A stretch of DNA of 64,000 bases from an uncultured virus (IMG/VR IMGVR_UViG_3300044641_002811). Its lineage: Duplodnaviria; Heunggongvirae; Uroviricota; Caudoviricetes. Below are positions 3,052 through 62,144 of the stretch, in pieces. Location: the IMG/VR virus record IMGVR_UViG_3300044641_002811. One strand, given 5' to 3'. Position numbers and translations under genes: made by a program. Position 1 is the stretch's first letter. The number at the start of each line of letters is the position of its first letter. The notes below the pieces were generated by a model. That model did not search any database. It was not told where the DNA came from and saw only the letters and a program-made list of their open reading frames with translations.

Positions 3052-3865
3052 ACTTTTCTGCCTGTTCCAGCTCTACTGCATCCATGTAGTGGACGTTAGG
3101 GGTGCCACAGCGGCGTGCCAGCACAATCACGGCGCCGGATGCTTTTAAGCCGGTTAAATGCTTGAGTCCCAGTGAATATGCTCCACATTGGTCGATATAC
3201 GAATGACCGCTGGGAAGCCTGTCGTCGCGGTCGGTTTTACGTCCCACGCTGGTCTTCCAGTCGACAACATGAATGCCTTGTTTACTTTTTAAGGTGAGTA
3301 AAGCGTCGGCAGTGCCGGCGAAGCCGGCTGGGTGGTGAATGGAAAATTCCGATGCAAAAATCTCGGTTACGTTCTCAGCGATCCAGTCAGATAAAGATCG
3401 AGCGTAACCTTTTGCGCTGAAACCTACGGGGGGAACATTGGGGCGTACCCTTTTGAGTGCCCATTGGGTGATGGGGGTGGGAATACGCGCCAGGCCTTGT
3501 TCGTCCCAGCGAATGGAGTTGCGTTTGTTTGCTGTAGACCGGGCTAATTGCATGGAGGTTTTTAATAGATACTCTGCTTGATTGTGCGTCATGTTGCCTC
3601 TGTTTGCTGCAACATTGCGCTGGCAGGTAGCTTCGGCTTCCCCAAGGCGTGCGGCCCAGCGTTCCAGTCCGGTGGTGTCGCTTGTCTCTTTTAGTATTCT
3701 AGTTACACTGTGATACACGTTACCGTTAATGTCCCGGTAGATTCTGCCGCCGGGGTCGGATTCGTCGTCACGTTCCAGCTTCCAACGCCTCAATCCAGCA
3801 AGTGTGTCTTGTGTATTAGGCATTGAAGGTACTATTTCCCTTCTGGATTCTAATACAGGTGTCAA
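2993..3865 (-). CDS. PD-(D/E)XK exonuclease
   Basis: HSVTRIL, RGNMTH, SEFSI..GFAGTAD..VVDWKT and QCGAY motifs. Confidence 0.85.
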   Translation of the reverse strand: MTPVLESRREIVPSMPNTQDTLAGLRRWKLERDDESDPGGRIYRDINGNVYHSVTRILKETSDTTGLERWAARLGEAEATCQRNVAANRGNMTHNQAEYLLKTSMQLARSTANKRNSIRWDEQGLARIPTPITQWALKRVRPNVPPVGFSAKGYARSLSDWIAENVTEIFASEFSIHHPAGFAGTADALLTLKSKQGIHVVDWKTSVGRKTDRDDRLPSGHSYIDQCGAYSLGLKHLTGLKASGAVIVLARRCGTPNVHYMDAVELEQAEKSFMERCHKYFDAIQEAIHA

Positions 3866-4344
3866 GCTGCAAAATCGCCGTGCAAGCGCCTCCTGGCTTT
3901 TAGGTATGCAGCATGAGCCTCTTCAGGCGTGTCATACGTACCAAGGTAAACAGCCTTCCCTTGGGTTATAAGGCGAGCCTTGAAACGCCCATTTGCCTTG
4001 CACCAGCCTTTCATCCCGAGAATGTTGGCGCGGTTTTGTACATCACTACATAGCCGTAGGTTCCAGATGCGGTTGTTTGCCTTGTTTTGGTCTTTGTGGT
4101 CAATCTGCACAGCACCGGGATCGGCGCCTGTGACCCATGCCCACACAAGGCGATGGGCTCTCAACTGAAAATTACCGAGCTTGATAGACCTGTAGCCGTA
4201 AGCGTCTACAAAACCAGCAGGTATATCCAAGCGTGTTTGAGAGCTACGGCGAACACGCCAGAAAAGCTCTCCGGTGAGAGGGTTAAAGGAAAACAGCTCC
4301 CATAACTCCGCCGTGGAGGGAAGGGGCCTGTATGCTCGTGCCAT
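3862..4344 (-). CDS. HNH homing endonuclease with AP2-like C-terminus
   Basis: AHRLVW..IDHKDQNKANNRIWNLR, then YLGTYDTPEEAHAAY. Confidence 0.9.
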   Translation of the reverse strand: MARAYRPLPSTAELWELFSFNPLTGELFWRVRRSSQTRLDIPAGFVDAYGYRSIKLGNFQLRAHRLVWAWVTGADPGAVQIDHKDQNKANNRIWNLRLCSDVQNRANILGMKGWCKANGRFKARLITQGKAVYLGTYDTPEEAHAAYLKARRRLHGDFAA

Positions 4345-4407
4345 CGCCTATTGCAGGTAGGTGGTCGGGGGCAGGGTGTTAGCGCACCGCTGCCCCACCA
4401 TTTTACC
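4342..4407 (-). promoter_or_regulatory. -10 box plus structured leader (copy 1)
   Basis: GGTAAAAT-GGT-GGGGCAG-C-GGTG-CGCTAA-CACC-CTGCCCC-CGACCA-CCTA-(7 nt)-TAGG-CG-ATG. Confidence 0.6.
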
Positions 4408-4409
4408 TA

Positions 4410-4991
4410 TCAGGCAGGCTTGAACGGGTTCGCACCTGTGAGCAAGCGCGAGATGTCAAAGCCTTCAGCTTTGGCTTCGATCCAAGCGGAATCAATATGT
4501 TCTTGCGAACCTTTTTTCCGGGGAAGAGGTCGGACAGTGTATTCAGTAGTCAAACCAGAACCTTTCTTGCCGATGGAAAAATCCCATTCGAGGAGATTGG
4601 TGTATTCATCAACTTGGGAGATCTGGTCGATTTCTTTGAGGATCGACTTTTGGGTGATCTGCAGGACTTGAACTTTGCCTGACTCGTAGTTGTAAACCGG
4701 GCAAGCGATGGCAAACTTCACGTCTGCTGTTCCAGGGCCGCCGCGTCCTTCGCGGGGTTCAAACTCGCCCATTTCGGCGACCACGTCCTCGTAGGTGGGC
4801 TCGAAGTCGAAGCGGAAGGGCTTATTGGCGCCGTTGGCGGCACCCCAGGCCTCGTAGAACTCCAGAGGTTCGTCAGTGAGTAGGGCGAAGCGGACAGATC
4901 CACCATCGGGGAGTTTGCTGAGGCTCAGGTAGCCGCCGCCGCTGTTGCCGCCGTTGACGTTTGCAGATGCGGATTTTGAAAGGAAGGCCAT
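4410..4991 (-). CDS. single-stranded DNA-binding protein-like
   Basis: Phage SSB-like pattern (YLSLSKL..SVRF..GSGLTTEY..NPF), located between exonuclease and primase. Confidence 0.6.
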   Translation of the reverse strand: MAFLSKSASANVNGGNSGGGYLSLSKLPDGGSVRFALLTDEPLEFYEAWGAANGANKPFRFDFEPTYEDVVAEMGEFEPREGRGGPGTADVKFAIACPVYNYESGKVQVLQITQKSILKEIDQISQVDEYTNLLEWDFSIGKKGSGLTTEYTVRPLPRKKGSQEHIDSAWIEAKAEGFDISRLLTGANPFKPA

Positions 4992-5131: not shown

Positions 5132-7528
5132 ATGTCGCAAAGTAAGACGCAGGATCTGCTGGCTTTTGTGCGCCAGCTGCCTGTGGGGATGGCGTACGCG
5201 CCGATTTACGCCAAAGGTGAGAAGCTGCCGTCTGGCTCGGTAAGCAAGGGCAAGACGCCTACAAAGCGCAGTCACGACGAGGTGATGAGCCCGGCTGACG
5301 TGGCTTTGCAGATTGAGCGCCAGCCGAAGGTGTTCCAGGCGGTGGGCGTCTTTACCGGCGGTCGCAGTATGGGACTCGTGATTCTTGATGTGGATCGGAA
5401 TCTCAGCCGTCTCAAAAAGAAGTGGGGGGATTCGCTGGAGGGTGCTCCAGTCGTTACCTCGACCAAAGCGAACGCTGCGAAGTACCTGTTCCGCGTTCCT
5501 GAGGCCCTGTGGGGCTCGGTGCAGGGTTTTGGGTTGTCGGATACCGGGGCTGGGTACGAGGTGCTCTGGGGCCGTCAGGGCGTCATCTACGGGGCTTATC
5601 CGGGCTCCAGTGATGGGAAGGCACCGGAGGGCTCGTATGGCTTTGAAGGGGACTTGGAGGCGATTCCAGAGGCTCCTGCGTGGCTGATCGCTGAGATGAA
5701 GGAGCGGGCCGGTAAGGGCGTCGAGGATGCCGGCTTCATTAGGAACCGCAAGGCGCTCGATTTCTCGGATCGAGACCCGGCTGAGGTGGCTGAGATCATT
5801 CAGTCGGCACTGAAGGTCATTCCGGGGCAGGGCGCTGGTAGCCGAGACCACTGGGTGAAAGTGGGGATGGCGATCCACTCAGAACTGCCGACTGACCTAG
5901 GGCTAACGCTGTGGTCTGCTTGGTCTGCGGAAGACCCTGAATTTTCACAGGAATGGGAGGAGGGCAATCCCTGCGAAGCCGCCTGGAGGAGCTTCAGGAA
6001 GGGGCCTGTAAGCCTTGGGACGCTCTTCTGGATGGCGGACCAGCAGATGCCTGGGCGGCTGTGGCTTGCGGAGGATCTGCGGAAGGTTGTTGAGGAGGTT
6101 GAGGGCGATAACGTCACCCGGATTCGGCAGGTTGTCATCACCTACGCCGAGGTGATCCGCCGGGCCAAGGAGATCCAGCAGATTCAAAACCCAGCGGAAG
6201 CTGCGCACGCCATGAACGTGCTGGCGCTGGAGGCTGGTTATCGGGACGCTGGGGCGCTGGAGCGGTTGCTAATCGCTCAGATGCAGTTCGAGCAGCAAGA
6301 TGACGAAATGGCGATGGACAGCTTGCTGAACAAAGACCTGAAGTTTGAGTACCTGATCCCTGATCTGCTGCCTTGCCCTGGGACCGTGATGATTCACGGT
6401 GCTGGTGGGGATGGCAAATCCATGTCCGCTTGGACCATTGCCAAGCATGTGGCGCGTGGGATTCCGTTCTCCGTGCGGGGGGATCTTGTTCCAGTGGAAG
6501 CCGGTCCCGTTTTGATCCTTAACGGCGATCAATCCGAGGTGCAGGTTCAGCAGCAGCTGCGGGATCTGGAGTTCCAGTCGTCGGATCCGGTGACGGTGGT
6601 GATGGGGTGGGACCTCAACTGGTATTACCGCTTTGTGAAGCTGATCGAGAAGCACCAGCCGAAGCTCGTGATCATCGACTCGATCACTGGCTGCAGCAGG
6701 GGTTCGGCGTTCGATGAAAACAAAAAGGAGTTTGCGAGCCCGATCTACTGGTTGGCCAACAACAACGGGCGCATGTTCCCGGCGTGCACCATCCTGCTGA
6801 TCCACCACGCCAACAAGACCGGTGGATTCCGGGGTTCCACTGCCATCCGGGACGCTGTGGATGAGGTGTGGGGGCTGCGGAGGCCGGACAAAAAGCAGGT
6901 GGAGCAGACCGGCTACAACGCTCGCCTCATCACCGTCGAAAAATCCAGGGCGGGGCGTGATGGCTCCAAGCTGCTGATGAAGCTCGAAAGCGACCTGACC
7001 TTCTCGCTGGCGGACTACGTGGAGCTGGATACCGACAGCGCCAGCCCGGCTTCCATCGTGGACAGGGTGCTCCAGCGCCTTAGGGCTGCGTATCCGCGCT
7101 CTCTGAGCCGCTCTGACCTCGCTGCGGACGCGCTTTGCGGTGGAAGTGTGGCCGCTATCGGCAAGGCGCTCCAGAGGCTCGCTTCGAGGGGCTTGGTTGA
7201 GGTGGTCGGGCAGACCTCCACAGGTGCCAGACCTTCCAATTTGTACCAAGCTGTTCTCTCGCGTGATATGTGTGTGAATAAGTGTCCTGAATTAGGAAAA
7301 CCCAGTCAGGGACTGGGAAGTAAAAAAGGACAGCCCCTAAGCATGTCCTCTTTTGATGGAGAGACTGGAGCAAAAGAGGACAGCCCTACCCCCTGTCCCG
7401 ATTTACTTCCCAGTCATACCAATGGATCTGGCATAACGGGACAGGTTTTTGAACCCTCCCCAAGGGAAGAACGCACTCCGGAAGAGCTGGAGCAGCTGAT
7501 GCAGGAAGCCGCACGGCTGTGGGACTGA
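5132..7528 (+). CDS. Prim-Pol primase, PriCT-2 and AAA helicase fusion
   Basis: GLVILDVD Prim-Pol motif; WVKVGMAIH..WSAWS (PriCT-2); Walker A GAGGDGKS; Walker B LVIIDS. Confidence 0.9.
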   Translation: MSQSKTQDLLAFVRQLPVGMAYAPIYAKGEKLPSGSVSKGKTPTKRSHDEVMSPADVALQIERQPKVFQAVGVFTGGRSMGLVILDVDRNLSRLKKKWGDSLEGAPVVTSTKANAAKYLFRVPEALWGSVQGFGLSDTGAGYEVLWGRQGVIYGAYPGSSDGKAPEGSYGFEGDLEAIPEAPAWLIAEMKERAGKGVEDAGFIRNRKALDFSDRDPAEVAEIIQSALKVIPGQGAGSRDHWVKVGMAIHSELPTDLGLTLWSAWSAEDPEFSQEWEEGNPCEAAWRSFRKGPVSLGTLFWMADQQMPGRLWLAEDLRKVVEEVEGDNVTRIRQVVITYAEVIRRAKEIQQIQNPAEAAHAMNVLALEAGYRDAGALERLLIAQMQFEQQDDEMAMDSLLNKDLKFEYLIPDLLPCPGTVMIHGAGGDGKSMSAWTIAKHVARGIPFSVRGDLVPVEAGPVLILNGDQSEVQVQQQLRDLEFQSSDPVTVVMGWDLNWYYRFVKLIEKHQPKLVIIDSITGCSRGSAFDENKKEFASPIYWLANNNGRMFPACTILLIHHANKTGGFRGSTAIRDAVDEVWGLRRPDKKQVEQTGYNARLITVEKSRAGRDGSKLLMKLESDLTFSLADYVELDTDSASPASIVDRVLQRLRAAYPRSLSRSDLAADALCGGSVAAIGKALQRLASRGLVEVVGQTSTGARPSNLYQAVLSRDMCVNKCPELGKPSQGLGSKKGQPLSMSSFDGETGAKEDSPTPCPDLLPSHTNGSGITGQVFEPSPREERTPEELEQLMQEAARLWD

Positions 7529-31637: not shown

Positions 31638-34040
31638 TTATGCCCTCCTATAGAATCGTGGTGAATAAGATCCTTCCCACATCATCGAAGTAAGAGAGAT
31701 CGGGAATGGTGAATCACTAAAGACCTTTAGGTCAAAGTTAGAATTACGTTGATGAATAGGTAATGTGTACACGGTCTGTTCATTCAGAGGAACGTCATCA
31801 GCCAAGTAATAGTCAGCATCTTGGATCGACTGAACGTCATACCATTCGGATTGACCTTTTGCTTTCAGCTTGAAGCCAACGTTGCTGGAAAGACCAACTG
31901 AGAACTTAACCCGAGCAACAGTCAGATTTGCTGTGTAATCAGATCTGTTCTCCCCAATCTGATAGTAGATCGTTGGGAGTTGGATGTCAAAGTCATACTT
32001 GAATCCAAGGTAGACCTTATTTGCTTGTGCTGAGTAATCATCACCGACAAACTCAAAGTAAGGACCAGTTAAATCACTACCACGAGTAGGAGTCACAGTG
32101 AAGCCAGACTCACCAGTGTTGGTTGGGTCAGCAATGATGACTGCAGGGCTTAAGGTCGTGATGTCTTTATACCGGAGGTAGCAACGATTAACCTTCGTAG
32201 TAGCGTTGTAGGAGACGCTAGAAGGCGTTGCGTATTGGTCCAGGCATAGTTGCACCACCTGACCGCTATCGGCTCTCAGAATGGCATCGTCGGGGGTCTG
32301 AGTGAGGTTCGCTTTGCAGAGGGTATACTGACCAGACTGATACGTGACAATGTACGTGTCATCACTATCGACAGTAAAGAACTGGACATTACCTTGCATC
32401 TTCCAGTTGAACCATGTCTGCATTGCTGTCTCTTCACCAACGGTGTAAGTCCTGAAGAAGTACACGTATTGTGAAGACGGGCCATACATCGCAAAGAATG
32501 AGTTCTGAGGTGATGCAATGAGATCAGCGACAGAATCAGGAACCCATTCAGAAACCACCCGGCCAATGTCCAACACATCAGGGTTTTCTTGCTGACCACG
32601 AGTAGCCATAGCGTAGATACGGGTATAACCTGGAGACTTACTCAGGAATACCATGTTCGTACCAACGTCTACTGGTGGGATCAGCTCTTCATTTTCGTAG
32701 TTGGAGATGGTCCTGATGACTGAAGTCTTAGGGGTAAGGATACCGTCATCTGAATACATCAAGAACTGCTGACTTTTACTGAACATCACCAGACCCTGAG
32801 CAGCAGGGAGTACTGAGTGAAGAACAGCAGGTCTCAAGCTAGAGCAACTGATGTCAATGGGATCGTTGTCAGCTTGGGTAAGTGCAGAGACGTGGTAGAA
32901 GTTGTAGAACTCACCACTTTGACTCATCGACACATTGTCACCAGTCAAGAAGCCAAGGCGGTTATTGTGGAAGAAGACCTGTTGGATCTTTTTGCCAACA
33001 AAGCTTGGATGCTCGTTAGTTTCATCATCACCGACAAGACGTTCTTCCCAAGTGATGGGTCTGAACTCAAAGGTGTTGAGTGCGGTGTTCACCAGCTCAT
33101 GCGGCATGGTGGATGCAGTCAGACCCTTGGATACGTTCGGTGCAACGGTCTCCTGCCAACTACCTTTACCAGAGACACTGTTCTCTGCGATGAAGGTTGC
33201 GTAATAGGAGTCCTCTTTAGCGACAGTATTGTTGATCTTGATTACTCGACCCTGAACGCTTTCAGCAGGCAGTTCAGAGAAGTTATTGGCTTCATCTTGA
33301 AATGCTCTCAGCTCTTCACCGCTGATACCACCACGCGCTTCAATAGTGAAAGCAGACGACCCAGAGAGTTCGATGCTACCTTTACACTTTGTCTTAGTGA
33401 CACCAGCAGGTAGGGAGATGTTGGTAAAGATCTGGTCCAGAATGTCAGTTGCATTCAAGACCTTGTTCGTCGTTGTATTGGTGTTAGCAGGGTCTTCTGT
33501 GTTCTTTGTGGTGAAGGTATAAGCTGCAGCAGAGCCTACCTTGACGTAATACTCGGCGCCGTACTCTGCACTATAAAGACGGATGGTTGCCTTTGACTTT
33601 GCAGTGAAGCTTGGTGCTGCTTGGGTTGTAACAGTGACTTGGTTATTAGCGACAATCGTTGTATCTTGTACAGTCAGTACTTGAAGACTGTTCTTGGCAT
33701 TTGAACTACCGTAGGTCAGATAGCTGCTACCAGTGTTGGTTACAGTGACAGTCGCTGCTGGGTTGTTGACATTCCAGATCTTGATGCTGGTCCCATAAAT
33801 CACACCGATGTACTTCTCAGTATCATCTCGGTTGATGTAGAACCACTTACCATTCTGGAACTCATTCGTGGTAGACGAAAGGTTGCCTAACCACTTGGTG
33901 CCAGGCCGCTTCGATAATCCATAGGTAGGATCTGCGTAAGCATTGATTGCTTCTACAACCTGCCCTGGAAGCTTCTTGTCGTCTGGCTGCTTGGATACAC
34001 CACCAAGAAAGTTAGGTATTAGTTGAGTTACACTTGCCAT
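31638..34040 (-). CDS. tail tubular protein B (gp12-like)
   Basis: IPNFLGGVSKQPD, GLSKRPG, PSFVGKKI..FFHNNRLGFL. Confidence 0.92.
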   Translation of the reverse strand: MASVTQLIPNFLGGVSKQPDDKKLPGQVVEAINAYADPTYGLSKRPGTKWLGNLSSTTNEFQNGKWFYINRDDTEKYIGVIYGTSIKIWNVNNPAATVTVTNTGSSYLTYGSSNAKNSLQVLTVQDTTIVANNQVTVTTQAAPSFTAKSKATIRLYSAEYGAEYYVKVGSAAAYTFTTKNTEDPANTNTTTNKVLNATDILDQIFTNISLPAGVTKTKCKGSIELSGSSAFTIEARGGISGEELRAFQDEANNFSELPAESVQGRVIKINNTVAKEDSYYATFIAENSVSGKGSWQETVAPNVSKGLTASTMPHELVNTALNTFEFRPITWEERLVGDDETNEHPSFVGKKIQQVFFHNNRLGFLTGDNVSMSQSGEFYNFYHVSALTQADNDPIDISCSSLRPAVLHSVLPAAQGLVMFSKSQQFLMYSDDGILTPKTSVIRTISNYENEELIPPVDVGTNMVFLSKSPGYTRIYAMATRGQQENPDVLDIGRVVSEWVPDSVADLIASPQNSFFAMYGPSSQYVYFFRTYTVGEETAMQTWFNWKMQGNVQFFTVDSDDTYIVTYQSGQYTLCKANLTQTPDDAILRADSGQVVQLCLDQYATPSSVSYNATTKVNRCYLRYKDITTLSPAVIIADPTNTGESGFTVTPTRGSDLTGPYFEFVGDDYSAQANKVYLGFKYDFDIQLPTIYYQIGENRSDYTANLTVARVKFSVGLSSNVGFKLKAKGQSEWYDVQSIQDADYYLADDVPLNEQTVYTLPIHQRNSNFDLKVFSDSPFPISLTSMMWEGSYSPRFYRRA

Positions 34041-42358: not shown

Positions 42359-43737
42359 TTACAATCAGGAGCAGGATCATTAAGAAGAGACTCCAGGTAT
42401 GCGGTAACGTCACCATCATCCAATGCGGCATAGGCATCAGACTTGTCTTGAACGTCACCCATTACCTGGAGACTGTAGTAAAGAGAAGTCTGTGGACTTG
42501 CCAACCAATCTTCGATGAATTGCTCATCATAGGTAACCACATCTGACCAGCTGTTAAAGGAGTATCCATGCAACAAGCCGGTGCTATCGAGCAGACGAAC
42601 GATGCCGTCCACTACTCGTTTGTATGACTCCCAGCCAACTTCAGACGCGATCTCAACAGGACCGTAGTCAAAGCTCTGGACGCCAAACGTACCGCTGTCA
42701 CGGTCCACTTGACGGGCAATGGGAGGAGCGATCTCAGGACAGGTTGTGTACCCACCGAGATCGGTGTATCGGTAACTGCACGAGGCAGTCGGAGCAATGG
42801 CAAAGGCACGCTCCATTTTGTTGAACTTGGCAACCTCAGCAGCTTGACGAATACCTGAGCTGATCTCATGAGCCAGTACCGCAGCAGGAGTTCGCTCATG
42901 AGGACGGTTGTTGTTGATGTTCTCCAACGCCTCACCAAACTCTTTGTAGCTCACCCCTTGCTGTCGGAGCAAGTTGGCAAGCCCAAGAAGTCCAAGACCC
43001 ACTTGACGATCTGTTGACGGAGGGAGATATTCTCCACTGCTATCGACATTTGTCTTACCATGGAGTTCACACAGCTCGGACATTCCGTTGACAAATGCAC
43101 GTTGTATGTCTCCGACTTCACATGCGCCAAGGTTGACATGTTGAAGCAGACATGTGCCCCGTGAGGGCAGATATACCTCAAGGCAGACGTTCCCCCGGAT
43201 GCGATTTCCATTTCGATCTACCTTTGTTTTGTTAAGCCAGATGTCTCCCTTGCGGATGCCATCAAGAAGTGCTTCCTTTACGTTCTCGGTGGTTTGTTCC
43301 CACCAGTGATCGTTAATGTTGACGCAACGCTTAACCCAAGGCAGCTCAGAACGAGAAGCAGTAATGAACTCAAGCACATCAGGATGGTTGAGATCAAGGT
43401 GACATACAACAGCTCCATTCTTGTATACTCCTCCGCGCCTCAGGATTTCATTGAGGGTTGAGTAGATCTTGGCAAAGGACACAGGACCAGATGCCACAAG
43501 ACCTTTGCCGTTCTCAGCACCTTTGGGACGGAGCTTAGAGAGGTGTACGGCTACACCCGCACCGTACCTCAATGCGTGACTCACAAAGCGCCACGAGGCT
43601 TCAATACCGTTCTCCCCTTCCATTGTGTCTTCCACCACGAACACGGTGCAAGAAACGGGGAGACGGCTGGTGGGATCATCAATCCAGGACTGCACACGCC
43701 CAGTACGGGCGATCAGTTCTTTGGTGGTTGCAGACAT
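42346..43737 (-). CDS. ribonucleotide reductase large subunit (minimal cyanophage type)
   Basis: VSC, GNVCLEV, TCLL and AIAPTASCS motifs; C-terminal CNC. Confidence 0.88.
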   Translation of the reverse strand: MSATTKELIARTGRVQSWIDDPTSRLPVSCTVFVVEDTMEGENGIEASWRFVSHALRYGAGVAVHLSKLRPKGAENGKGLVASGPVSFAKIYSTLNEILRRGGVYKNGAVVCHLDLNHPDVLEFITASRSELPWVKRCVNINDHWWEQTTENVKEALLDGIRKGDIWLNKTKVDRNGNRIRGNVCLEVYLPSRGTCLLQHVNLGACEVGDIQRAFVNGMSELCELHGKTNVDSSGEYLPPSTDRQVGLGLLGLANLLRQQGVSYKEFGEALENINNNRPHERTPAAVLAHEISSGIRQAAEVAKFNKMERAFAIAPTASCSYRYTDLGGYTTCPEIAPPIARQVDRDSGTFGVQSFDYGPVEIASEVGWESYKRVVDGIVRLLDSTGLLHGYSFNSWSDVVTYDEQFIEDWLASPQTSLYYSLQVMGDVQDKSDAYAALDDGDVTAYLESLLNDPAPDCNCGE

Positions 43738-53508: not shown

Positions 53509-54426
53509 TTAGATGTTGTTGGCTGTGCTCAAAACGGCGTCCTGTGTGTTATGGACGTACCGCTCGGTGGTCTCCACTCGCTTGTGACCCATAGCGGCCT
53601 TGACGTGCATCAAGGGTGCACCGGCTGCGATCTGCCACGTCCCGAAGGTGTGACGCAGTGTGTGGAAGACATACGATTCATCAATGTAGGGATCCAATCG
53701 GATCGCCTTGTCCCTCACTTTGTTGAAGTGACGGTTGATGATCTGACGGCTGTACCACACCTCACCAAAGACCAGATCCATTGCGTCCTTGCCATGGAGT
53801 CGCCGTTGGAGCATCTCCACGATCTTGTCGTTGATGCCCACCTGGCGGTAGTTCTTGGCCTTGGTCACGGAATCAGGTGTACCACCGATGTGAATGACAG
53901 GCTGTTGCGGCCTGAAGTCCACGTCCCTGACCTTGAGTTTGCGTAACTCTGCTTGCCGTGCTCCGGTATACACCGCTGCACGAATCAGGTCAGCCAACTC
54001 GAAGTCACCCCGTTCACAGGCAAGGTTGGTGAGCAACGTCACCTGCTCTTTGGTGAACCAGTTGGTGCGTCCTTCCCCTTCCTTGTAGCGTTGAATGACA
54101 GGAATGGCGTTGATGTACCCGTCCCTGGCTGCGATCTTGAGGACCATGCTAATCGTTGAGATGAAACGATTGGCAGAACCATTTGACCAACTGTAGCTGT
54201 CTACAGCATCTTGAACCACCGCTTTTATGAACGGTGTGTTGATGATTGTGAGGGCAGGATCACCAGCGATTTCTTCAAACTGTTTGGCGTGACGAATCAC
54301 GTTCATACCGTTTGCTGTCTTGGGATCCCATTGCTGGGTCAAGGCATGTTCAAACGCTTGGCTAAACGTCTTGATCGACGTTTTCTTGGGGATGCGGTCA
54401 AGGATGCGTTGGGTTCGCTTATCCAT
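53509..54426 (-). CDS. int: tyrosine integrase
   Basis: TGARQAEL, TKAK, FHTLRH, MGH, RYVH (complete catalytic set). Confidence 0.93.
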   Translation of the reverse strand: MDKRTQRILDRIPKKTSIKTFSQAFEHALTQQWDPKTANGMNVIRHAKQFEEIAGDPALTIINTPFIKAVVQDAVDSYSWSNGSANRFISTISMVLKIAARDGYINAIPVIQRYKEGEGRTNWFTKEQVTLLTNLACERGDFELADLIRAAVYTGARQAELRKLKVRDVDFRPQQPVIHIGGTPDSVTKAKNYRQVGINDKIVEMLQRRLHGKDAMDLVFGEVWYSRQIINRHFNKVRDKAIRLDPYIDESYVFHTLRHTFGTWQIAAGAPLMHVKAAMGHKRVETTERYVHNTQDAVLSTANNI

Positions 54427-57187: not shown

Positions 57188-57615
57188 GGTTGGTGTGCCA
57201 CTTGTTCTGGTGGCTGCAGATAGGTGATGGATCTGCCCAGCATTCGCGCTGGTTCGCATCGCCTGGGTGCAGTATAGCTACCGATGTGGATAGGACGTGC
57301 TGGAACCGTAATATACTGTCACAATGTGGATGGCAACGGCTGAGATCCGTTGGTATGACTGGTGTTACGAGTTCGTATCAAGGGAAGGCAGAACAGATGT
57401 GTTCACATGACATACGTCTGTTATTGCGAACCATTCTCAATAAGCGATGCCTGCGGCCTATGCTGACGCCTGTTTGGTAGCGTAGCGATACACAACAGCA
57501 CTAGATTTCCTATCTAGTGGCGCCAATACCCCAGGGAAACCGACCCCACACGGGGGAATCTGCGTCCCTGTATAGCGGTAATAGGCTTTTCAAATTTCTG
57601 CCAAAATTTCATCAA

Positions 57616-57688
57616 GGTATAATGAGGTGGGCCAGCGTAGTTGGAGCTACCTGACCCGTGACCAACTCAACCATGGATTGAGCTGATG
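57616..57688 (+). promoter_or_regulatory. -10 box plus structured leader (copy 2)
   Basis: GGTATAAT-GA-GGT-GGGCCAG-C-GTAG-TTGGAG-CTAC-CTGACCC-GTGACCA-A-CTCAA-(7 nt)-TTGAG-CTG-ATG. Confidence 0.6.
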
Positions 57689-57889
57689 AACTCATTCTCA
57701 CGACAACCAAGCAATCAGCAAGGTTTGTCTCCTTTTACAACACCATTAACACGCAAACCAAGCCGTGTAACGGTCACCATTCCATGGTCATTACGACAAA
57801 CATTGGAACAACGAAGTGACAAGGAAGGCAGAAGCCTCAGTAACCTCATCGCTTACCTTTTAGAACTGTCCTCTGAGAAGCCTCTGTAA
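57686..57889 (+). CDS. ribbon-helix-helix (Arc/CopG-like) protein
   Basis: RVTVTIP..LRQTLEQRSDKEGRSLSNLIAYLLE. Confidence 0.8.
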   Translation: MNSFSRQPSNQQGLSPFTTPLTRKPSRVTVTIPWSLRQTLEQRSDKEGRSLSNLIAYLLELSSEKPL

Positions 57890-61817: not shown

Positions 61818-62144
61818 CTAGTTAATGTGTGAAAGAATAAGGTCTTCTCTTTGGGTAATCCCAAATGTTGCTCTCATCCACGAGAGCCAATTATTGCTAC
61901 CTTTTGCCTGATTACACTTCCAACAACTGGGTACGAGGTTTGAAGCAAGGTCTTCACCTCCTTTACATTTTGGTCGTACATGATCGAGTGTAAGTTCTTG
62001 TAAGTCATAAGTTTCTCCGCAATAGACACAACGGCACTCAAAGTGCTCCTTAATAGCGCGTCTCCAAAGACGCTTTGCTTCGGGACTTGTCATTGTGATT
62101 AAGTTTTGGAGGTAGTGATCAGGCGTTGGTAGCAGTGGAGTCAT
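61818..62144 (-). CDS. HNH endonuclease (McrA-like)
   Basis: CVYCG..TLDHVRPK..GG..NLVPSCWKCNQAK. Confidence 0.9.
   Translation of the reverse strand: MTPLLPTPDHYLQNLITMTSPEAKRLWRRAIKEHFECRCVYCGETYDLQELTLDHVRPKCKGGEDLASNLVPSCWKCNQAKGSNNWLSWMRATFGITQREDLILSHIN

Follow-up and report, generated by a model that had tools for sequence, protein, structure and literature searches.

Two copies of a structured cassette in the window

The window, a 64,000-nucleotide (nt) stretch of the uncultured virus record IMGVR_UViG_3300044641_002811, holds two copies of a short cassette in which a −10-like box is followed by two hairpins and a start codon; copy A lies on the minus strand and copy B on the plus strand. 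Copy A precedes a gene for a 160-residue endonuclease with HNH_3 and AP2 domains (3862..4344, −, with its ATG at 4342-4344). It begins with a −10-like hexamer of the form TAnnnT (4400..4405, −), located immediately 3' of the stop codon of the upstream open reading frame (ORF) 4410-4991 and 3 nt 5' of hairpin 1. Hairpin 1 (4368..4396, −) consists of a 7-bp lower stem and a 4-bp upper stem, with a bulged C at 4389 and a 6-nt loop at 4379-4384. A linker of the form N + GACCA, assigned by sequence and folding (4362..4367, −), connects it to the start-proximal hairpin 2 (4361-4347, −), which has a 4-bp core and a 7-nt loop and is separated from the ATG by 2 nt (4345..4361 when those bases are included). 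Copy B precedes a gene for a 67-residue RHH_5 (CopG-like) protein, which lies on the strand opposite to its neighbours (57686..57889, +). Its −10-like hexamer (57618..57623, +) stands 5 nt 5' of hairpin 1 (57629..57657, +), in which the lower stem (7 bp), the upper stem (4 bp) and the loop (6 nt) are as long as in copy A, with the bulged C at 57636. The linker, assigned by sequence, reads NN + GACCA + A (57658..57665, +), and hairpin 2 (57666-57682, +), with a 5-bp core and a 7-nt loop, is 3 nt from the ATG at 57686 (57666..57685 when those bases are included).

Each copy also has a second −10-like hexamer on the opposite strand, within codons 3-5 of the downstream gene: TAnnnT at 4331..4336 (+) in the HNH gene of copy A, and a weaker nAnAAT at 57694..57699 (−) in copy B, which agrees with the consensus at 4 of 6 positions. 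The body of a predicted antisense RNA would extend over 4343..4399 (+) in copy A, where folding gives two hairpins, and over 57629..57687 (−) in copy B, where the hairpins are of 12 bp and 11 bp.

The shared architecture of −10 box, stem, bulged C, GACCA, second hairpin and ATG that a preliminary description had pointed out is thus seen at both sites. The GGGNCAG/CTGNCCC stem of that description is present as well, but it is not a perfect helix in both copies, copy B having a C.A mismatch at lower-stem pair 4 on the gene strand. The pattern GGTAWAAT N2-6 GGGNCAG matches the window twice, both matches being the copies, and was absent from 100 dinucleotide-preserving shuffles. A covariance model searched with filters off over both strands of the 64 kb gave 69.4 bits for copy B (57626-57688, +) and 58.0 bits for copy A (4342-4399, −). 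Because the third-best match falls to 14.2 bits, on the reverse strand of copy B, the window holds exactly two copies, one in each of its phage-like parts.

The window itself looks like two joined viral records, with a G+C content of ~58% from position 1 to about 17000 and of ~49% in the rest. The first part encodes a primase-helicase and a family A DNA polymerase (PolA), and the second a T7-type terminase, ThyX and an integrase; 48% of the words sampled from the second part are common to a 44.7-kb virus record.

The cassette belongs to a covarying family

The preliminary description had proposed a search for further copies and a test of covariation, and both gave clear results. Members in IMG/VR were anchored on an exact-pattern scan and are counted among the matches listed (120 stretches), and membership was defined as a score of 34 bits or more with covariance model R2. 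At this cut-off there are at least 99 matches, namely at least 95 IMG/VR loci, the two window copies and two cultured phages, and they comprise 68 distinct sequences. True members account for 95 of the 120 listed pattern matches; the other 25 do not have the architecture and, except for locus L105, score 29 bits or less with model R1. In true members the inner segment (the arm spacing) varies within 12-16 nt and a one-sided bulge is conserved, and the cassette always ends 2-4 nt 5' of an ATG that opens a real ORF.

Covariation was determined for the 68 distinct sequences in the model alignment. Paired cells amount to 86.7%, compared with 67.6% in shuffled alignments, and the covariation score is 0.405 compared with 0.097; none of 500 shuffles scored as high, and controls in which the structure was slid along the alignment reached 0.057 at most. 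In particular, all four Watson-Crick types occur, with no unpaired cell, at three pairs, two of them inner pairs of hairpin 1 and the third in hairpin 2. The inner stem and the start-proximal hairpin, whose differences between the window copies had been taken to keep the pairing, indeed show true compensatory changes, which recur among the distinct relatives.

Synechococcus phages S-CBP3 and S-CBP1 (host CB0101) share ~80% identity with the region of copy B, and in both of them the element also precedes an unannotated RHH ORF. This 63-residue ORF of the RHH_5 type lies in S-CBP3 (KC310803.1; L001 2658-2849) and in S-CBP1 (KC310802.1; L002 722-913) and is missing from both GenBank annotations. 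There is one cassette in each of the complete phages S-CBP1, S-CBP3 and G004, two in G002, where they precede an integrase gene and an HNH-AP2 gene, and four in G003, a complete phage of 44 kb, where they precede three HNH_3 genes and one gene of unknown function (1537-1593, +; 7447-7506, −; 33643-33701, −; 43369-43426, +; L253-L255). The lower stems of the four G003 cassettes, otherwise invariant in the family, differ from each other by compensatory changes; they look as if repeats within one genome had been selected to diverge.

In species-representative genomes the model gave at least four matches with scores from 43 bits upwards. One cassette, of 68 bits, precedes a resolvase gene in the chromosome of Synechococcus sp. 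MIT S9507 (NZ_CP138970.1, near 841 kb; L199 1198-1255), and this cassette, with an adjoining ORF of helix-turn-helix-like type, probably sits in an integrated element. Further matches are found on a 44.8-kb phage contig binned as a Pirellulaceae metagenome-assembled genome (MAG) and on a 7.6-kb contig of a Cyanobium MAG. Judged from these sequences, the cassette, at ~90 bp, is a portable element of phages of marine and freshwater picocyanobacteria and of their hosts. Weaker look-alikes occur outside cyanobacteria, in an actinomycete MAG (L213 282-336, 43.3 bits), where the loop of the start-proximal hairpin contains GGAGG, and in a Polyangiales MAG (L191 1180-1239, 33.4 bits). The family may reach beyond cyanophages, or these two loci may be mis-binned phage DNA.

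Genes behind the cassette

The cassettes, at least 99 in number, precede at least 85 distinct products. A Pfam scan of 28 representative products assigned eight to HNH_3 (together with AP2, NUMOD4 or zf-His_Me_endon), six to HNH (PF01844) and six to RHH_5, and identified one tyrosine integrase and one metallopeptidase-like protein, while six products had no family. With the resolvase of MIT S9507 among them, the downstream products span at least five unrelated Pfam groups. This tabulation, also proposed in the preliminary description, bears out the portability that was claimed there. The same description had suggested autoregulation by the downstream product, which is unlikely since the downstream genes are unrelated. 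An RHH protein acting as a common trans-factor was considered and ruled out, as the four-cassette phage G003 has no RHH_5 match.

We also investigated 50 viral loci with relatives of the HNH-AP2 protein of the window. The cassette is present at the 10 loci with close relatives (91-100% identity) and absent from the 40 with distant ones (at most 52% identity in the best segment), where the search with filters off gave 13 bits or less. A general association of the cassette with HNH-AP2 genes is thereby ruled out, 40 of the 50 loci being without it. Since the downstream genes are unrelated and only close relatives carry the cassette, it belongs to the picocyanobacterial phage and host community and not to one gene family, and no downstream protein is its common regulator.

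Two genes of the window, the integrase gene (53509-54426, −) and a small HNH gene (61818-62144, −), are without a cassette in the model search with filters off; integrases in related contigs carry it, unlike that of the second phage of the window. At ~20-45 nt upstream of the −10-like box, cassettes of the PF01844 HNH type share a motif with direct GGTTGC(A) repeats, one or two in number (L096, L097, L047, L030, L008, L060, L006 and L101), which could serve as an operator or as a −35 region of unusual form.

Pairing is better kept on the strand opposite the gene

The preliminary description had placed the structured RNA in the mRNA leader, and the distribution of non-Watson-Crick cells bears on this assignment. 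In the variable pairs, read on the gene strand, there are 122 A.C or C.A cells and not a single G.U. They fall at six pairs, 40 of the 68 sequences having one at lower-stem pair 4, with 26, 38, 10, 5 and 3 at pairs of the second helix. An A.C on one strand is a G.U on the other, and therefore the intermediates seen between Watson-Crick states are just the ones in which the opposite strand stays paired.

To compare the strands, the same 45 sequences were aligned with MAFFT, the alignments being fitted to no structure, and the gene strand was scored with the mirrored structure. On the opposite strand 96.7% of cells are paired with a covariation score of 0.443, compared with 81.7% and 0.318 on the gene strand, and the start-codon helix is paired in 96.4% of cells on the opposite strand versus 71.9% on the gene strand. 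The opposite strand is the more stable one in 66 of the 68 distinct sequences, with a mean of −28.2 versus −19.9 kcal/mol. The minimum free energy (MFE) of copy A is −31.2 kcal/mol on the opposite strand and −23.8 kcal/mol on the gene strand; for copy B the values are −29.1 (z −5.54) and −18.2 (z −1.56) kcal/mol, respectively. Among six divergent copies, five are more stable on the opposite strand and one is a tie.

The fold itself also differs. On the opposite strand hairpin 2 grows to 9-12 bp. The bases opposite the GACCA linker and those opposite the (C)UGAUG start region are paired with each other there, which accounts for the invariance of GACCA. In one divergent copy this helix, which takes in the A and U of AUG, has a compensatory change from one Watson-Crick pair to another. 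The pairing data suggest that selection probably acted on the strand opposite the gene and that the strand first assigned to the structure was probably the wrong one. The portable cis-regulatory RNA of the preliminary description is accordingly retained as portable, covarying and regulatory, but probably not as the leader itself, since the opposite strand folds better.

Two additional features of the fold were considered. A lower-stem extension, pairing the GGU flank with the ACC of the linker, was ruled out because the 5' flank varies without compensation. For loop-loop or loop-linker pseudoknots, no conserved complementarity was visible by eye in the aligned members, to which no formal test was applied.

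Promoter-like boxes on both strands and a constraint on codons

The −10-like box noticed in the preliminary description is conserved, with TAnnnT found 5' of hairpin 1 on the gene strand in 59 of 77 distinct contexts; the strict form is absent in 18. Its distance from the hairpin is 5 nt in 25 contexts, 3 nt in 22, 6 nt in six, 4 nt in five and 8 nt in one. The opposite strand has a positional −10-like signal of its own: at +8/+9 from the A of the ATG, TAnnnT occurs on this strand in 47 of 75 distinct 5' coding ends (48 of 75 for +7 to +9), and at any other offset between +3 and +49 in two at most. With the relaxed form nAnnnT, 66 of 75 coding ends have a match at +7 to +9.

This signal is reflected in the codons. 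Codon 3 ends in A in 64 of the 75 coding ends, compared with 4-24 at codons 2 and 4-20, and in 39 of 75 the first two bases of codon 5 are TA (Tyr), compared with 0-9 at other codons. The class at offset 9 uses Val, Ile or Leu codons ending in TA. The constraint on codons 3 and 5 is common to HNH-AP2 proteins, PF01844 HNH proteins, integrase and other unrelated proteins. Antisense transcription is predicted to start 7 bases 3' of the opposite-strand hexamer, opposite the U of AUG (4343 in copy A), and such an RNA would have the foot of the long hairpin at its 5' end.

There is no terminator-like site next to either window copy, and hairpin 1 was ruled out as an intrinsic terminator on either strand because it has no adjoining U-tract. 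A terminator-like hairpin with a T-rich tail is found at 57499-57519 (−), ~110 nt past hairpin 1 in the antisense direction, and an opposite-strand transcript of copy B that ran this far could terminate there.

A possible antisense mechanism and its alternatives

Because pairing is kept on the opposite strand and a second −10-like box is present there, the structured RNA is more likely to be a cis-antisense RNA than the leader itself. In the mechanism that we favour, a face-to-face pair of promoters gives rise to a structured antisense RNA that targets the leader and the start codon, and we put the chance of this being correct at about one half. Two −10-only promoters, ~70 bp apart, would face each other and give transcripts overlapping by ~60 nt. 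The gene-strand promoter would start the mRNA at the foot of hairpin 1, while the opposite-strand promoter, within codons 3-5, would start an antisense RNA opposite the start codon. This RNA would fold into two stable hairpins ~3 nt apart and would be fully complementary to the whole mRNA leader and the first bases of the start codon. The leader would form the mirror image of these hairpins, made weak by the A.C mismatches, and so would be open both to the ribosome and to the antisense RNA. Pairing between the two RNAs, aided by convergent transcription, would lower translation of DNA-cutting and recombination enzymes (HNH homing endonucleases, integrase, resolvase) or of regulators (RHH). The sequences themselves show the cassette, its covariation and spread, the asymmetry of pairing between the strands and the two positional −10-like signals; from these we infer firing of the promoters, production of the antisense RNA and repression by it.

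Several observations weigh against this mechanism. A full sigma-70 scan found no promoter at either window copy, neither box is accompanied by a −35 hexamer, and TTG is not enriched. In the RHH class the opposite-strand hexamer is without its first T (a 4/6 match), and a U-run of four or more within 15 nt after the antisense hairpins is present in only 11 of 75 cases. At the loop-closing pair of hairpin 1, eight gene-strand U.G cells are mismatches on the other strand. Owing to the common descent of the sequences, the counts above are not of independent events. Finally, a purely cis antisense mechanism does not account for how strictly the lower stem and the bulge are conserved.

One extension of the antisense mechanism bears on this last point, although we consider it distinctly unlikely: the antisense RNAs would act in trans too, as a single RNA currency that keeps the lower stem, bulge and linker conserved. 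If this were true, cassettes on one phage, on co-infecting phages and on a host island such as that of MIT S9507 would share control, and homing nucleases, integrases and resolvases would be throttled jointly as copy number rises. The arrangement would amount to a phage-community version of IS10 multicopy inhibition, from which phages with several cassettes would escape by diversifying their stems.

Alternatively, the hairpins could act in the mRNA leader itself, with no need of an antisense RNA, hairpin 1 being a 5'-terminal stabiliser or a protein-binding site and hairpin 2 masking the start so that translation is low. The layout of the cassette agrees with this, since it always ends 2-4 nt before the ATG of a real ORF, its −10-like box is 2-8 nt (nearly all 3-6 nt) 5' of hairpin 1, and many hairpin-2 loops contain GGA, GGAG or AGGA at Shine-Dalgarno distance. 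There is also a precedent, as hairpins that mask the ribosome-binding site (RBS) restrain homing endonucleases in T-even phages (PMC2988022), and the gene strand is after all still 81.7% paired with a covariation score of 0.318. Selection on an mRNA fold should, however, allow G.U, whereas the variable pairs have 0 G.U and 122 A.C on this strand; the start-codon helix is only 71.9% paired there, copy B reaches a gene-strand MFE z-score of only −1.56, and the nucleotide constraint in codons 3-5 is left without explanation. On balance we regard control by the leader alone as doubtful.

The inverted repeats might instead work as DNA, in the form of a cruciform or of a hairpin in the single-stranded template strand, and serve as a recombination hot spot that shuffles cassettes, as in PeSL, or be bound by a nuclease, recombinase or repressor. 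The same cassette does stand before unrelated genes, on both strands and in 1-4 copies per phage genome, the lower stems of G003 diverge by compensatory changes as expected for repeats within a genome selected to diverge, and PeSL offers a precedent for mobile units of promoter and stem-loop (PMC2839356, PMC4122927). Moreover, G.T is allowed in DNA hairpins, so the strand asymmetry alone is no proof of RNA. The arm spacing of 12-16 nt and the conserved one-sided bulge nevertheless suit a folded single strand better than a duplex operator for a dimer, the position of hairpin 2 follows the start codon from gene to gene, the two TAnnnT boxes would be left without a role, and no protein is common to all carriers, RHH_5 being absent from G003. 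A role at the DNA level thus appears improbable.

Equally improbable, in our judgement, is that the opposite-strand hairpins are part of another transcript, either as the 5' leader of a leftward mRNA or as a barrier or stabiliser for RNA entering from the far side of the gene, without a dedicated small antisense regulator. In the case of the RHH copy, which is turned towards the early region, the leader version is plausible: in S-CBP-type phages RHH is the sole gene on its strand, so that the opposite-strand promoter points at leftward genes, and the hairpins are followed by no terminator until the terminator-like hairpin ~110 nt on (57519-57499, −). Among the HNH-AP2 cassettes, however, nuclease and upstream gene share a strand, and an opposite-strand transcript there could only be antisense.

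Relation to known RNA families and regulatory systems

The preliminary description could not match the element to a named RNA family, and in Rfam 15 we likewise found none, with no match at the gathering threshold on either strand of the window, only chance-level matches below threshold at both copies, and nothing relevant in 20 other member loci. The sole Rfam model that touches the element is the C4 antisense RNA (RF01695), like the cassette a phage regulatory RNA upstream of its target gene. Its score at copy A (4357-4405, −) is 14.2 bits with an E value of 5.3, far under the gathering threshold of 45, and it does not recur at copy B or the 20 other loci, so that it was rejected as a chance match. 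A tRNA-like element or an attP-type tRNA fragment was rejected as well, ARAGORN having found no tRNA or tmRNA gene in the window. The motif is described nowhere in the literature searched, subscription-only papers being outside its reach, and term searches of the S-CBP genome paper and of a cyanopodovirus transcriptome paper returned no passage on promoters, integrase or antisense. The cassette is uncatalogued as an RNA family.

The proposed antisense mechanism follows the logic of RNA-OUT of IS10 and art200 of IS200. IS10 RNA-OUT is a precedent for cis-antisense control of a transposase (PMC5006887). In IS10 (RNA-IN/RNA-OUT) and in IS200 (tnpA/art200), as predicted for the cassette, a DNA-mobility gene faces an opposite-strand promoter inside or near its 5' end, and the stable conserved stem-loops of a cis-antisense RNA are found in the cassette on the opposite strand (96.7% paired; 66 of 68 more stable). 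Unlike these systems, to which it has no similarity in sequence or by Rfam model, the cassette is common to several unrelated phage gene families and has two hairpins and a conserved core, and its antisense RNA is predicted, without a detected terminator. The antisense RNAs of the plasmid systems FinP/traJ and CopA/CopT consist of two stem-loops with a short spacer and are complementary to the leader and first codons of their target; stem bulges are typical of them and their terminators are defined. The plasmid systems differ from the cassette in having their own Rfam models, none of which matched it.

Homing endonuclease genes of T-even phages, whether free-standing or carried by introns (I-TevI/II/III, segB and mobE of Aeh1), are restrained in translation by an RNA hairpin at the RBS, with a promoter placed right at the hairpin and, in T4, inside it, so that late transcripts escape (PMC2988022). 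The cassette would serve the same end of holding homing endonuclease genes down, but its −10 box is upstream of both hairpins and not nested, its fold is better on the other strand, and it is a shared family whereas each T4 hairpin is specific to its gene. The PeSL units of T4-type phages are short repeated units of a promoter and a G/C-rich stem-loop that travel with accessory genes; they have a full sigma-70 consensus, with a terminator stem-loop before the promoter, and flank ORFans in many copies (PMC2839356, PMC4122927). In contrast, the cassette has no full promoter and no U-tract, its hairpins lie between the −10 box and the ATG, and it is present in 1-4 copies per genome.

Implications

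Among the selfish and lysogeny-related genes of T7-like cyanophages, those for homing endonucleases and integrases are the main ones, and we know of no work on how their expression is restrained in these phages. One small cassette that stands before several unrelated gene families, and is present in S-CBP1, S-CBP3, a Synechococcus chromosome and the contigs of at least 95 uncultured phages, provides a concrete experimental target for this question. The asymmetry between G.U and A.C can reverse the strand that is assigned to a structured leader, which is a general caution, and a putative promoter hidden in codons 3-5 can dictate the N-termini of proteins, as with Tyr at residue 5 of unrelated enzymes. 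The cassette would add a new family to RNA catalogues, and it flags an unannotated RHH gene in two GenBank phage records.

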